45,082 nucleotides of DNA from contig CAYJKM010000004.1 in NCBI GenBank assembly GCA_964370805.1, forward strand, positions 1 to 45,082. The letters are read 5' to 3'. The stretch comes from an uncultured Alphaproteobacteria bacterium. Lineage in GTDB: Bacteria > Electryoneota > RPQS01. Of the stretch, positions 26,252 to 30,651 are shown in pieces. Both the position numbers and the translations under genes were made by a program. Position 1 is the stretch's first letter, and each line of letters opens with the position of its first letter. The notes under the pieces are model-generated. The model searched no databases. It was not told where the DNA came from and saw only the letters and a list, made by a program, of their open reading frames with translations.

Positions 26252-26538
26252 GCGACTGGAAATGGCGCCAAACGACTGCCTTGCATTATTATCTGTTTAA
26301 TATACAGCTGGTTAAGGTATCGTCTGGGAAAACTTCAGAGTCTCTGCAGATGACCGGTATGATGTGACAGTTCGACTCAATTACTCGAAAGTAGCAGGTC
26401 AACCTGACGAGAGAAGCTGAAGAGCGGGGATTGCTGCGGCAATTGATAATCACAAACAGGTGTTGTTAGTCAACGGTGTACTTGGTGTAAGCGGCAGATT
26501 AACCTGCCGGACGCACCGCATCAGAAAAGGAGAAGACT

Positions 26539-28143
26539 ATGGCGGACGTGCTTCCGAGTCAGCTCATGAATTCGGTCATGGGCAAGCTGTATGACACGCT
26601 GGCAAGCGGCGATGAGACGGTCAAACAGTCAGAAGACAACTTTTTCAGTTGGGCAACTCCCGGCATCCCGGTGGAACCTGAGGATTTTGAATTTCTTTCC
26701 CAGGGGTTGACCGGCGTCGTCAAGAAAGCCGATATTCGCGAAATGGTGCTGGAACCGGCCGGCGGCGGAGAGGGAACTGAAGCCGAGGCCGCGAAGCCGG
26801 AGCTGACACCGGAATTGCTCGATCAACTCCGCGCTCAGGATACGGCGCAGCTGTACATGCAGGCTGAGAATTTTGCGCGGCTGGTTGACTTCGTTCCCGA
26901 CGTGACGGCCGGCAGCAACAATCAGCTTTCGCGTCTCAACATCCTGAACAACGAGGGCAGTCTTTCCGATGTCTATCGGTACACGCTGCGCATGAGTCAG
27001 GTGGCGGAATCGCAATTGGATGACAAGACCAAGGAGAAGATCGAGAAATTCCGCAAACTCCTCTCGGTCACCACCGTCAAGAAGAACATCATTGATGACA
27101 CCGAGACGGAAGTGTCAGAACCCAGTCCGCTGGTCAAGGCCTACTTTGAGAAGATGGCAGCCTATGAGGATACCGCGCTGCAATACAATAGCCGTCGCAT
27201 TGATGCCCTCGCTGCGTCAACTCCGCAGGCCGTGCATTACTGGGCTATGAACGCTAATATCCTGCGCAATAAGGTGCGGGCCGCGATGCAGGATTGGGTC
27301 TCCACCGGCTACAAGAATGACTATGAGCAGATTGCCGCGTACATCGATCAGGTGATGCTGCGCGATATGACATTGCTCAAGCAAGAGTACCGGGACGACG
27401 TGGAAAAGGCGCGCTTGACCGGACTGGCGTCCGGGAGCGACTTCTTCTACTCGTCGCTGATCCCCGGCAATTTCGCGCGCTCACGGGGCTGGACGAAATT
27501 CGCGTTTGGCAGCGGCGATTTCAAGAGCCATGCCTCTTCGAATTTCAGCACCAAGCGTTGGAAGACGGAGGCCACCGGCGGTCTGCTCACGGGCTTTGGC
27601 TTCTTTGGCGGAAGCGGCAGTGTGGCGCAAGGCAGTACCAAAACCGCAAACGAGATGAAGTTCGACAGCCAGCAGTTCAGCCTGAACTTTGAGATCAGTC
27701 AGGTTCCGATTGTGCGGCCGTGGTTTAAGCCGGCGTTTCTGCTCAGCCGCTCTTGGCGCTACGATCAGAACGATCAGGAAGCAAAAAGTGAGATTCTCAG
27801 CAACGGCGCCCTGCCGGCAAAGGGCTTGATGCCGGCATACCCCACGACATGTATCTTCATTCGGAATCTGCGACTCAACTTCGGTACGAGTTCAGGCTTC
27901 AGAAACTTCATGTCCGAGCAAGTCGAGAAGTCGGGCGGCGGCGGCGGCATCGCCGCCATTGGCCCGTTCACGCTGGGCGGCGGATACAACCGTGCCACGA
28001 CGAGCGGCAGCACACAGCACAACGTCGGTCACACCTGGGAGCGGCAGGAACTTCAAGTTCCCGGGATGCAGATCATCGGATTCAAGTGCCATATCATGCC
28101 CAAGAGTCCGAATCCGCTGCCTACCATCACCAATTGGGTTTAA
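26539..28143 (+). CDS. Hypothetical protein A (534 aa). It is leaderless, with an N-terminal helical region and a C-terminal beta-rich region carrying Gly/Ser/Thr-rich stretches. Paralog of the next gene.
   Basis: AAGGAG sits 7 nt upstream of the ATG. No signal peptide is visible. Motifs shared with protein B are NFFSW..PEDFxF, ENFARLV, V/LRPWFK...SR.WR and an MPKSPNP-type tail. Gly-rich segments include GGLLTGFGFFGGSGS and SGGGGGIAAIGPFTLGGG. Confidence 0.8.
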   Translation: MADVLPSQLMNSVMGKLYDTLASGDETVKQSEDNFFSWATPGIPVEPEDFEFLSQGLTGVVKKADIREMVLEPAGGGEGTEAEAAKPELTPELLDQLRAQDTAQLYMQAENFARLVDFVPDVTAGSNNQLSRLNILNNEGSLSDVYRYTLRMSQVAESQLDDKTKEKIEKFRKLLSVTTVKKNIIDDTETEVSEPSPLVKAYFEKMAAYEDTALQYNSRRIDALAASTPQAVHYWAMNANILRNKVRAAMQDWVSTGYKNDYEQIAAYIDQVMLRDMTLLKQEYRDDVEKARLTGLASGSDFFYSSLIPGNFARSRGWTKFAFGSGDFKSHASSNFSTKRWKTEATGGLLTGFGFFGGSGSVAQGSTKTANEMKFDSQQFSLNFEISQVPIVRPWFKPAFLLSRSWRYDQNDQEAKSEILSNGALPAKGLMPAYPTTCIFIRNLRLNFGTSSGFRNFMSEQVEKSGGGGGIAAIGPFTLGGGYNRATTSGSTQHNVGHTWERQELQVPGMQIIGFKCHIMPKSPNPLPTITNWV

Positions 28144-28150
28144 TTGCGAT

Positions 28151-28183
28151 GCAGCGGGCTCCGCGCCTCGCGGGGCCCGCTGC
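28151..28183 (+). promoter_or_regulatory. 15-bp GC-rich intercistronic stem-loop between the two paralogs, with no U-tract
   Basis: GCAGCGGGCTCCGCG-cct-CGCGGGGCCCGCTGC. Fourteen Watson-Crick pairs plus one G-U pair were checked by hand. Confidence 0.6.
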
Positions 28184-28254
28184 CGGACGCCTGCTTGATT
28201 CATGCTTCTTTCAATACTGCAACGAATCTCAAGACAAAACCGTAGGAGAAGGCC

Positions 28255-29694: not shown

Positions 29695-29767
29695 TTGCCT
29701 TTCCATTCCAAACACCTATTCAAACAAGTCCACTATACCTTCATTCACAGGAAGGATTGACTGAGCC

Positions 29768-30514
29768 ATGAAGAATCTCGAGAAAGGTGATAAGGGAGCC
29801 GATGTCCGCACGCTTCAGAAAGCCCTGAATGAGCGCGGCTACCCTGTAGAAGTTGACGGCGATTTCGGCACGAAAACCTACAACGCTGTGCGGGCGTTTC
29901 AATCGCAGCACCTCGATCAAAACGGCAATCCGTTGACGATCGACGGAAAAGTCGGGCCGCTCACCTGGTGGAGCCTGACGCACACCGCATCGACGATTGT
30001 TCCTGAAGTGGCGATCGATTATCTGAAAATGCCGCCGTCATCCTTAGGCGGGAGTACCGAAGGCCGGGCCGCGCTTCAAGCGGCCATCAATGAAATGAAG
30101 GCCGGAGCCGGAGAAGTGGGCGGCAATAACCGCGGACCATGGGTGGCAAAATATCTCAATGGTCTGGCGCCGCAGGGAAACAGTTGGTGCGCGGCGTTTG
30201 TCAGCTGGTGCTTTTCACAGCGCAACGGCGAGCCGCCCTTCGACTATACGCTTGGCGCGCGCGATATGCTGCGGCAATTCGAGGAAAACGACTGGACTCA
30301 CGAACCACAATCGGGTTACGAACCTCAGCCTGGGGACACGGTTGTTTGGTGGCGAGTGCGGGCGGATGGCTGGCAGGGTCACGTCGGATTAGTGCATCAC
30401 CTCAAAGACGGCATGCTCTACACCATTGAAGGCAACAAAAGCAGCAAGGTGCAGGGTTTCTCGTACGTGTTCAGCCGAATGGAGAAGCTGCTCGGCTTCG
30501 GCCACGTCCCCTGA
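29768..30514 (+). CDS. Leaderless peptidoglycan hydrolase: N-terminal PG_binding_1 domain plus C-terminal CHAP/NlpC-P60-like amidase (endolysin-like architecture)
   Basis: PG-binding repeat: GDKGADVRTLQKALNERGYPVEVDGDFGTKTYNAVRAFQ. Catalytic Cys context GNSWCAAFVSW (Cys141, nt 30188-30190), His context WQGHVGLV, then YTIEGN. No signal peptide. Confidence 0.85.
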   Translation: MKNLEKGDKGADVRTLQKALNERGYPVEVDGDFGTKTYNAVRAFQSQHLDQNGNPLTIDGKVGPLTWWSLTHTASTIVPEVAIDYLKMPPSSLGGSTEGRAALQAAINEMKAGAGEVGGNNRGPWVAKYLNGLAPQGNSWCAAFVSWCFSQRNGEPPFDYTLGARDMLRQFEENDWTHEPQSGYEPQPGDTVVWWRVRADGWQGHVGLVHHLKDGMLYTIEGNKSSKVQGFSYVFSRMEKLLGFGHVP

Positions 30515-30621
30515 TGCAGAATTCACAACGAACGGGTACTTCGTGAACATACGAGGCAAAGTAATCACCGAACCCAATCCATGACTCATATCAAACGGCC
30601 AGTTAATAACTAGCGGTAGTG

Positions 30622-30651
30622 GAACGGGTCAGCCAAATGGCTGACCCGTTC
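30622..30651. terminator. Perfect 13-bp palindromic hairpin between convergent genes (GGGTCAGCC family)
   Basis: GAACGGGTCAGCC-aaat-GGCTGACCCGTTC. Confidence 0.7.

Follow-up and report, generated by a model that had tools for sequence, protein, structure and literature searches.

A new family of paired leaderless paralogs, found beside an endolysin-type peptidoglycan hydrolase, as a candidate holin-independent membrane-permeabilizing module

Introduction

Phage lysis cassettes and type 10 secretion systems (T10SS), of which Yersinia entomophaga YenLC and Serratia ChiWXYZ are examples, set an endolysin-type hydrolase beside a holin, a small protein with 1-4 transmembrane (TM) helices, and endolysins of Gram-negative phages usually carry the PG_binding_1 domain N-terminal to the catalytic domain. 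Membrane attack by pairs of proteins is known from two-component beta-pore-forming toxins (beta-PFTs) such as the staphylococcal bi-component leukocidins and the pleurotolysin A/B-type MACPF pairs, and bacterial gasdermin-protease systems have reportedly been described by Johnson et al. (bioRxiv 10.1101/2021.06.07.447441). Additionally, surveys of extracellular contractile injection systems (eCIS) list peptidoglycan hydrolases and hemopexin proteins among the eCIS-associated toxin candidates, and eCIS particles exit by cell lysis (PMC8213781; PMC11297309). Here we analyze a locus that resembles each of these systems in part. It lies in a 45,082-nt stretch of DNA, called the window below (contig CAYJKM010000004.1 of assembly GCA_964370805.1, positions 1 to 45,082 of the forward strand), from an uncultured bacterium labelled Alphaproteobacteria with the GTDB lineage Electryoneota (RPQS01). 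The locus is a cassette of three genes, designated A, B and C, that encode two paralogous proteins and an endolysin-type enzyme.

An original prediction made from the letters of this DNA had read the cassette either as a phage-derived, T10SS-style release module or as a binary membrane-active toxin pair. We find that C is the ordinary part of the cassette and that the A-B pair is the remarkable one. A and B belong to a new family, occur together across many phyla and have peptidoglycan hydrolases of several unrelated types as recurrent neighbors. The reading that we favor, at a probability of roughly 0.4, is that A and B form a holin-independent membrane-permeabilizing pair, which would allow an endolysin-type enzyme to reach the wall.

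A and B are paralogs of a new family

BLASTP aligns A and B collinearly across 359 columns at 26% identity (E 7e-18), and every motif on which the original prediction had based its claim of collinear paralogy is found where it was said to be. Neither protein matches Pfam, NCBIfam or PADLOC, nor do they match PDB sequences when searched as single proteins or as profiles. The PHROGs gave A weak matches at most (best E 0.0015) and nothing meaningful for A or B, and ten longer family members were also without a Pfam match, so that the earlier failure to recognize a family in A and B was well founded. No published description of such a pair was found in the literature searched, and public homologs are all called "hypothetical protein", save for a few spurious names that automatic annotation gave because of a Gly-rich stretch. 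The A-B family is thus new in the sense that the libraries and literature searched contain no described relative.

This family is large. With representatives defined as clusters at 50% identity, a combined A+B profile matches 2,482 of them at E <= 1e-3, 726 of which fall below 1e-30, and a further 132 top representatives all (132/132) sort clearly as A-like or B-like. At least 558 A homologs at 57-69% identity, all unnamed, carry the labels Actinomycetota, Cyanobacteria, Alphaproteobacteria and Syntrophales, whereas the B homologs (at least 201) share only 35-52% identity; conservation is strong in A and lower in B. Fifteen columns are invariant across both paralogs in a 50-sequence A+B alignment, and the C-terminal tail PNPDPxLPW is kept in very distant plasmid relatives. 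Cysteines are located at positions 438 and 517 of A and at positions 329, 462 and 469 of B.

The AlphaFold2 (AF2) model of B is confident (predicted local distance difference test, pLDDT, 86.3; predicted template modeling score, pTM, 0.86) and depicts long helices that are bundled against a sheet whose long strands are one N-terminal and three C-terminal, followed by an ordered C-terminal tail. The model of A (pLDDT 71.8) has the same secondary-structure elements in the same order, with the addition of an acidic disordered linker at about residues 60-90 and low-confidence segments at 333-371 and 464-495. A Foldseek comparison of the B model with 350,542 PDB chains and with BFVD returned nothing at E <= 0.001 (best E about 1), and the A model had no match at E <= 0.001 in the PDB. 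The structural check proposed along with the original prediction therefore yielded no significant match for either protein, and the term novel fold is used here to mean that no solved (PDB) or viral-predicted (BFVD) relative is detectable by Foldseek.

The conserved unit is the A-B pair

A genome scan that used an A-only alignment as query and one genome per species identified 67 loci. These are from Nitrospirota, Cyanobacteria, Desulfobacterota and others, and include Actinomycetota (Mycolicibacillus koreensis, Arthrobacter pascens, Microbacterium), Pseudomonadota (Xanthomonas bonasiae, Neorhizobium petrolearium, Sphingomonas), Acidobacteriota (Holophaga foetida) and Bacteroidota (Dyadobacter, Fermentimonas). 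Of the 60 loci that extend at least 1.7 kb downstream of A, 58 have B directly 3' of A on the same strand, and the A-B order is repeated in six further metagenome and genome contexts. The conserved unit is the A-B pair only, with the exact A-B-C trio seen only in contigs of the source organism. Consequently, the idea of three-gene synteny holds for A and B and fails for the exact trio, surviving as a replacement of C by non-orthologous peptidoglycan hydrolases. Clustering of 620 neighboring open reading frames (ORFs), together with a Pfam analysis of upstream genes, revealed no conserved regulator or immunity-like gene beside the pair.

The A-B module is horizontally mobile. A conjugative Rhizobium plasmid and an Acuticoccus plasmid both carry family members, and the Nodosilinea pair adjoins ParA/McdB genes and a phage-integrase-family gene (182 aa, called an integrase fragment). 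The Rhizobium sp. WYJ-E13 plasmid (L078) encodes a very divergent pair of 438 and 485 aa that keeps the PNPDPxLPW tail. Acuticoccus plasmid p3 (L077) encodes a single very divergent member of 495 aa followed by an OmpA-family (peptidoglycan-binding) gene, and on both plasmids a hypothetical gene of about 245 aa precedes the family members. A phage origin, as the original prediction had considered, was not borne out: no relative of A was found in IMG/VR contigs or GenBank phages, and the B model has no match in BFVD. Gene A is split into ORFs of 343 and 173 aa in Dyadobacter sp. 3J3 (L065, 6884-8527) and truncated in L060 (6992-8338); either could be a pseudogene or reflect an error of assembly. 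An A-B pair of the typical bacterial type also occurs on a 22-kb contig of a metagenome-assembled genome (MAG) labelled Methanosarcina barkeri (L040), through either mis-binning or horizontal transfer.

C is a facultative partner drawn from a widespread enzyme family

Both domains predicted in C lie above their Pfam cut-offs (PG_binding_1, E 3.7e-13, 49.9 bits against 23; CHAP, E 2e-12, 47.8 bits against 26), and C matches PHROG endolysins. The putative catalytic residues Cys141 (NSWCAAFV) and His205 (GWQGHVGLV) are assigned by their position in the domain and fall inside the CHAP match, and PG_binding_1 is N-terminal to the catalytic domain as in phage endolysins. Judged by its sequence, C is an endolysin-type peptidoglycan hydrolase and an ordinary CHAP/PG_binding_1 member, as had been proposed. 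It belongs to a large and well conserved family of leaderless proteins of about 250 aa (699 matches at E <= 1e-10), in which the nearest relatives of C are labelled Calditrichota.

The genomic contexts of five close homologs of C were inspected. Three of them, 64-71% identical to C, lie between eCIS_core (DUF4157) genes in eCIS loci (Table 1) and may be eCIS cargo or release enzymes. The other two, in Calditrichota-like genomes (L079 and L083, gene at 7001-7750 in each), have the order rpsU - C - cvpA - mutS2, which suggests a native chromosomal role of the C-type enzyme there. These contexts make C a promiscuous, recruited module rather than a dedicated partner; C is a facultative partner of A-B.

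Peptidoglycan hydrolases of several folds recur beside the pair

A peptidoglycan hydrolase or peptidoglycan-binding gene is located beside A-B in about 15 of about 62 loci, from Nitrospirota, Acidobacteriota, Actinomycetota, Desulfobacterota and Alphaproteobacteria. Their catalytic domains are of the CHAP, GH108, PF11860 muramidase and Amidase_2 types, and one Peptidase_M74 was found among the upstream genes. For example, the PG_binding_1+CHAP form of the window recurs in a Nitrospirales group, a CHAP gene lies upstream of A-B in one Actinomycetota MAG and one Nitrospiraceae MAG, and four Nitrospira loci have a lipoprotein CHAP behind an AAA+ ATPase. Two Acidobacteriaceae loci encode GH108+PG_binding_3, a Syntrophales locus a PF11860 muramidase+PG_binding_1, Arthrobacter an Amidase_2 plus PG_binding_1 proteins, and an Acetobacteraceae locus a PG_binding_1 protein. 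Nearly all of these genes are co-directional with A-B and no more than 2.2 kb away, whereas the outer 2.2-7 kb of the same flanks, used as an internal control, hold two to three peptidoglycan hydrolase matches. Most of the hydrolases lack a signal peptide, the exception being the Nitrospira lipoprotein CHAP. Non-orthologous replacement is a classic sign of a functional link, and the presence of at least four, probably five, hydrolase folds beside A-B thus argues for such a link and bears on the question of co-occurrence that the original prediction had raised.

Some of these loci have additional genes. Four Nitrospira loci (L021, L023, L028, L029) have a lineage-specific form that consists of A, B, a 519-aa classical AAA+ ATPase, the lipoprotein CHAP and a 143-aa protein, the last of which is absent from L028. 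The ATPase has weak IetA-like PADLOC matches, and a divergent hemopexin-repeat gene lies upstream of the five-gene form. In the Acidobacteriaceae loci L054 and L055 the order is a leaderless caspase-like Peptidase_C14, A, B and GH108+PG_binding_3, which comes closer than any other to a protease-activated executioner combined with a lysozyme. Caspase-like C14 genes, likewise leaderless, are found upstream of A in 3 of about 62 loci, at a distance of 357-363 nt in two of them and of 1,356 nt in the other; further protease neighbors of A-B are Astacin, Trypco2, Peptidase_M3 and Peptidase_S10. Ten loci from several phyla encode hemopexin-repeat proteins, and other lectin-like beta-propellers beside A-B are of the tectonin/DUF346 and RCC1+Lcl_C types. 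Two lectin-like neighbors that were inspected are both leaderless.

A carries candidate membrane-insertion segments and B a variable insert

No signal peptide or TM helix was found in A, B or C, with the maximum Kyte-Doolittle hydropathy over 19 residues (KD19) remaining below 1.0. This agrees with the original prediction that none of the three carries a signal peptide and extends it to TM helices. The Gly-rich segments reported for A and the RVATP-type Pro/Arg/Val-rich insert reported for B are likewise both present. In an alignment of A-like proteins down to 29% identity, the hydrophobic columns of A residues 343-368 alternate with Gly/Ser columns on either side of a central turn, and the flanks are rich in S/T/K/E. 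Residues 466-483 show a shorter strand-turn-strand pattern with an aromatic-G475-P-F477 tip, in which G475 and F477 are invariant. The hydrophobic/Gly-Ser alternation is kept even in A-like proteins at 29-40% identity. The second segment is short for a full bilayer span; the alternation pattern and polar flanks are conserved in both. Alternation of this sort characterizes the sequences of membrane-inserting beta-hairpins or of aromatic-Gly insertion loops, as known from beta-pore-forming toxins and fusion loops, and the two segments of A are plausible candidates for membrane-inserting beta-hairpin-like elements.

B lacks both segments, with a deletion at the first site and a variable insert at the second. 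Other B proteins have a tachylectin or CarboxypepD_reg domain at the position of the insert, and in some a LysM domain, or a BspA-type leucine-rich repeat (LRR) region with a C-terminal TM anchor, is added after the conserved tail. For example, the B proteins of L039 (8709-11402) and L075 (Fermentimonas) are 898 aa long; the conserved core extends to about residue 395, a BspA-type LRR region comes next and a hydrophobic, tail-anchor-like helix forms the C-terminus. Since B lacks the hairpin segments and has a hypervariable insert, it is probably a partner, regulator or targeting subunit.

Comparison with described systems

The cassette is like T10SS and phage lysis cassettes in that a leaderless endolysin-type hydrolase is encoded beside genes that could plausibly breach the cytoplasmic membrane, and the likely outcome would be a lysis that frees leaderless cytoplasmic proteins. 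Unlike these systems it has no holin or spanin: there is no co-directional holin- or spanin-like small ORF in 25887-30690, where only antisense ORFs inside A and B are present. The candidate breaching parts are instead two large soluble paralogs without phage relatives, and a hydrolase is present in only about a quarter of A-B loci. The window is chromosomal and its host diderm, with MetH and an AcrB/MFP/OEP efflux set present. Membership in the T10SS or phage lysis cassettes was rejected, as neither a holin, nor the spanin that a diderm host would call for, nor any sign of phage ancestry was found, and the T10SS-style reading of the original prediction fails with the missing holin and spanin. 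Its statement that no ATPase or phage structural gene is nearby is upheld, as neither these nor a holin-like ORF were found in or beside the cassette.

Bacterial gasdermin systems would be similar in the proposed action of A, a soluble leaderless protein with latent beta-hairpins that may permeabilize its own membrane from inside. They are also similar in the caspase-like C14 genes upstream in three A-B loci. Gasdermin systems have a short C-terminal autoinhibitory peptide that cleavage removes; A and B have a short conserved C-terminal tail that packs on the core and is ordered in the B model. In contrast, the A model compares with the gasdermin chain 7n52_D only at E 0.56, probability 0.16 and TM-score 0.12, a match that we treated as noise, and the B model with a gasdermin-like RCD-1 chain at E 5.8 and probability 0.01. 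A and B are twice the size of gasdermins, form an obligate paralog pair, have no PADLOC match and begin with MADVLPSQ and MDAFTQLA, without the N-terminal Cys that is the palmitoylation site. An activating protease is absent from the cassette and rare in other A-B loci; the Peptidase_C25 gene of the window, encoded by the other strand and separated from the cassette by another gene, has no syntenic counterpart elsewhere. As no gasdermin fold was detected and the N-terminal Cys and an adjacent protease are missing in the window, membership in the gasdermin systems was rejected.

Two adjacent subunits, paralogous as in leukocidins, and one subunit (B) that varies faster than the other (A) are features in common with two-component beta-PFTs, and the two candidate amphipathic hairpin-like segments of the putative inserting subunit (A) would be shared with MACPF/CDC proteins and gasdermins. 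The differences are that neither homology nor a structural match to beta-PFTs was found, that there is no Sec signal and that only one paralog, A, has the hairpin segments. The aerolysin, leukocidin and MACPF/CDC families were rejected because there is no Pfam, PDB profile or significant Foldseek match; the CDC-like chain 9ccq_A compares with the B model at E 4 and probability 0.03.

With eCIS-associated toxins the A-B loci have C-type proteins, hemopexin proteins and peptidoglycan hydrolases in common, all of them leaderless. Unlike eCIS loci, no A-B locus has a sheath, tube, baseplate or eCIS_core gene within 7 kb, and eCIS seed proteins match only the AAA core of the Nitrospira ATPase (26% over 155 residues). 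No eCIS gene was present among the Pfam-scanned genes of the window, parts of which were scanned, and the eCIS loci in which C homologs were found encode neither A nor B. Since eCIS structural genes are not found in A-B loci, nor A and B in the eCIS loci examined, a linkage of A-B to eCIS was rejected.

Proposed mechanism and its alternatives

In the mechanism that we favor, A, as the candidate inserting subunit, would permeabilize a membrane together with B. The A-B complex would breach the cytoplasmic membrane of the producer from inside and would be functionally holin- or gasdermin-like. C could then reach and cut the peptidoglycan, and the cell would lyse, freeing cytoplasmic contents that include A and B and, elsewhere, the leaderless lectin-like and protease neighbors. 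We infer membrane insertion, the A-B complex, the direction of action and lysis from the features above, and the direction of action is the weakest of these steps. A breach of the producer's own membrane is the simplest path because the components are leaderless, a holin is missing and the host is diderm; the leaderless components and the missing immunity gene also favor action on the producer's own inner membrane.

A number of observations weigh against this mechanism. About three quarters of A-B loci have no peptidoglycan hydrolase, and 25 of 53 non-redundant B-containing loci have no co-directional downstream gene despite room for one (26 of 53 have a contiguous one), which indicates that lysis is not the whole function of the module. 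None of the five close C homologs (64-73% identity) is next to A-B, and C may be a recent, loosely coupled addition. The hairpins are read from a pattern in the sequence only, and AF2 confidence is low in both segments of A. No known pore former is structurally similar, the best Foldseek E values being about 0.1 to 1 or worse and gasdermin, XaxA and CDC-like chains appearing only at E 0.56-5.8 with probabilities no higher than 0.16. The defense-island context is weak, with about 10 of 150 neighboring proteins matching PADLOC models, mostly generic ones, and the conservation of A (57-69% identity across phyla) is unusually high for a protein involved in conflict. Finally, extracellular-type binding domains occur in B proteins or their neighbors (LysM, tachylectin, LRR, CarboxypepD_reg, hemopexin, tectonin, RCC1), and action outside the producer fits these at least as well. 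A more specific proposal, in which A-B would be a new-fold, two-component beta-hairpin membrane-permeabilizing family spread over at least 10 phyla that acts from the cytoplasmic side as a holin-independent endolysin gate, with the B insert as trigger or targeting element, is doubtful.

The alternative that survives best, which we consider rather unlikely, is a binary toxin that is released and acts on other cells, with A inserting into the membrane, B binding a receptor and the variable insert setting target specificity. The hydrolase would then either lyse a sacrificial producer, as in a T10SS but with no holin, or aid in crossing the target wall. The tachylectin, CarboxypepD_reg, LysM and BspA-LRR additions to B proteins fit this scheme, as do the lectin-like beta-propeller neighbors, and a conserved A with a fast-evolving B resembles an effector with its targeting subunit. 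The module is mobile, on plasmids and beside an integrase fragment, C homologs are among eCIS effector genes, and hemopexin proteins and peptidoglycan hydrolases are typical eCIS-associated toxin candidates of particles that exit by lysis (PMC8213781). However, no export signal or secretion system is tied to the pair in any phylum, no holin would let C out, and the conserved immunity gene that an antibacterial toxin would need is missing. The fold is also unlike known secreted toxins, and many A-B loci stand alone in ordinary chromosomal contexts.

It is unlikely that A and B are not membrane-active at all and instead constitute a cytoplasmic or envelope-associated structural, scaffold or regulatory pair, involved for example in wall remodeling or in a self-assembling polymer. 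The Gly-rich segments would then be flexible loops, and the nearby hydrolases would reflect a shared cell-wall process rather than lysis. The identity of A across distant phyla is more typical of structural or housekeeping-like constraint, the fold without any match provides no toxin-like evidence, and many loci have no hydrolase, protease or lectin partner. The AAA+ ATPase of the Nitrospira loci, where a lipoprotein CHAP is also present, could remodel an oligomer, and the C-type enzyme is syntenic beside rpsU, cvpA and mutS2 in two Calditrichota-like genomes. Against a role of this kind are the patchy, seemingly horizontally transferred distribution, with plasmids and one locus beside a phage-integrase-family gene, and the hypervariable, domain-swapping insert of B. 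The conserved hydrophobic/Gly-Ser alternation and the invariant GP-F tip would be unexpected of passive linkers, and the partner hydrolases, which are leaderless, are like endolysins and not like exported housekeeping enzymes.

That the cassette consists of two genes, with C an unrelated mobile peptidoglycan hydrolase that is downstream by chance and has no part in A-B function, is distinctly unlikely: close C homologs away from A-B (three in eCIS loci, two at rpsU-cvpA-mutS2), the restriction of the exact trio to the source organism and the roughly half of A-B loci without a co-directional downstream gene would fit it, but hydrolases of at least four, probably five, folds recur beside A-B across five groups within 2.2 kb on the same strand, and C itself follows B by 73 nt with its own ribosome-binding site, no terminator between them and the only strong hairpin 3' of C.

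Architecture of the cassette and the remainder of the window

The coordinates of the cassette and of related features are given in Table 1. The three co-directional genes are separated by 111 nt (A/B) and 73 nt (B/C), no terminator-like site was found in these intergenic gaps, and each start is preceded by a Shine-Dalgarno (SD)-like site: AAGGAGA for A, TAGGAGA for B and AGGAAGGA for C. The GTG start of B is supported by conservation of the family N-terminus MDAxxQLALMxKAK. A promoter scan placed a sigma70-like site at 26334-26363 in the leader of A; the leader has no Rfam match and its folding is not unusual (z -0.38), which gives no indication of a regulatory RNA.

The original prediction had set the three genes, each with its SD site, between two strong hairpin terminators. 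The gene layout, the SD sites and the strength of both hairpins are upheld, and the first hairpin is the intrinsic terminator of the preceding unit. The second, lacking a T-run on either strand, is not a canonical intrinsic terminator but a strong palindrome that separates two convergent genes. Both belong to one family of palindromes (AACGGGTYAGCC..GGCTGACCCGTT) with eight arm matches, at five sites of the window, where 0.2 matches would be expected by chance. As the two hairpins are members of a repetitive extragenic palindrome (REP)-like family, the identical flanks are a genome-wide feature and not specific to the cassette.

Table 1. Coordinates of the cassette, its segments and related features (positions refer to the window unless a locus is named)
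Feature	Position	Strand	Description
Upstream hairpin	26218..26251	+	free energy (dG) -25.7 kcal/mol, z -5.6 vs shuffles; T7 tail
Gene A leader and promoter region	26252..26538	+	287 nt; SD AAGGAGA just 5' of ATG
Gene A	26539..28143	+	ORF, 534 aa, ATG start
A segment 1, residues 343-368	27565..27642	+	amphipathic Gly/Ser-hydrophobic; candidate membrane-insertion beta-hairpin; model pLDDT <50
A segment 2, residues 466-483	27934..27987	+	amphipathic; aromatic-Gly-Pro-Phe tip
A C-terminal signature	28081..28140	+	last long strand and tail FKCHIMPKSPNPLPTITNWV; C517, P524, P526, W533 invariant in A and B
Gene B	28255..29694	+	ORF, 479 aa, GTG start
B variable insert, residues 347-454	29293..29616	+	Pro/Arg/Val/Thr-rich low complexity, RVATP-type repeats; low pLDDT; DNA repeat D4
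Gene C	29768..30514	+	ORF, 248 aa, ATG start; leaderless, PG_binding_1 (10-67) and CHAP (136-223)
Downstream palindrome	30622..30651	.	dG -31.7 kcal/mol, z -6.2 vs shuffles; perfect 14-bp arms
REP-like palindrome copies, intergenic	15622; 23666-23693; 26218-26246; 30623-30650; 37344-37372		AACGGGTYAGCC-loop-GGCTGACCCGTT
C homologs in eCIS loci	L081 7001-7756; L082 7001-7771; L084 7001-7747		Armatimonadota MAG, Bacteroidota MAG and one unlabelled assembly

The DUF4153, InhA-like_MAM and Peptidase_C25 genes that flank the cassette in the window were rejected as parts of the system, as they are not beside A-B elsewhere. Upstream, 26165-26250 is a degenerate copy of 23613-23693, that is, of the 3' half of a tRNA-Glu(CTC) gene (23583-23656) and the hairpin following it. 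This tRNA-Glu-derived direct repeat, with its copies about 2.55 kb apart, brackets only the DUF4153 membrane-protein gene, with no integrase, and looks like an att-type integration scar at a tRNA or a decayed tandem tRNA. At about 15650-23050 an extracytoplasmic function (ECF)-type sigma factor with TPR/DUF6596 domains precedes a series of small YCII, RibD_C, glyoxalase, alpha/beta-hydrolase and 3-dmu-9_3-mt genes, several of which are paralogs. This series appears unrelated to the cassette.

Conclusions

Even if the proposed mechanism is wrong, A and B are strictly paired, strongly conserved and mobile, with a confident model of B that has no structural relative. The gap in annotation touches cultivable hosts, namely Holophaga foetida, Arthrobacter pascens, Xanthomonas bonasiae, Neorhizobium petrolearium and Mycolicibacillus koreensis. 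If A-B is membrane-permeabilizing, it would be a large and phylogenetically broad addition to the short list of bacterial membrane-opening routes. A holin-independent gate, if true, would add to holins and gasdermins a third way in which bacteria undergo programmed lysis or release, and could explain how leaderless endolysin-like enzymes, lectin-like proteins and proteases exit from cells that have no holin. Leaderless peptidoglycan hydrolases encoded outside prophages would then gain a candidate partner.

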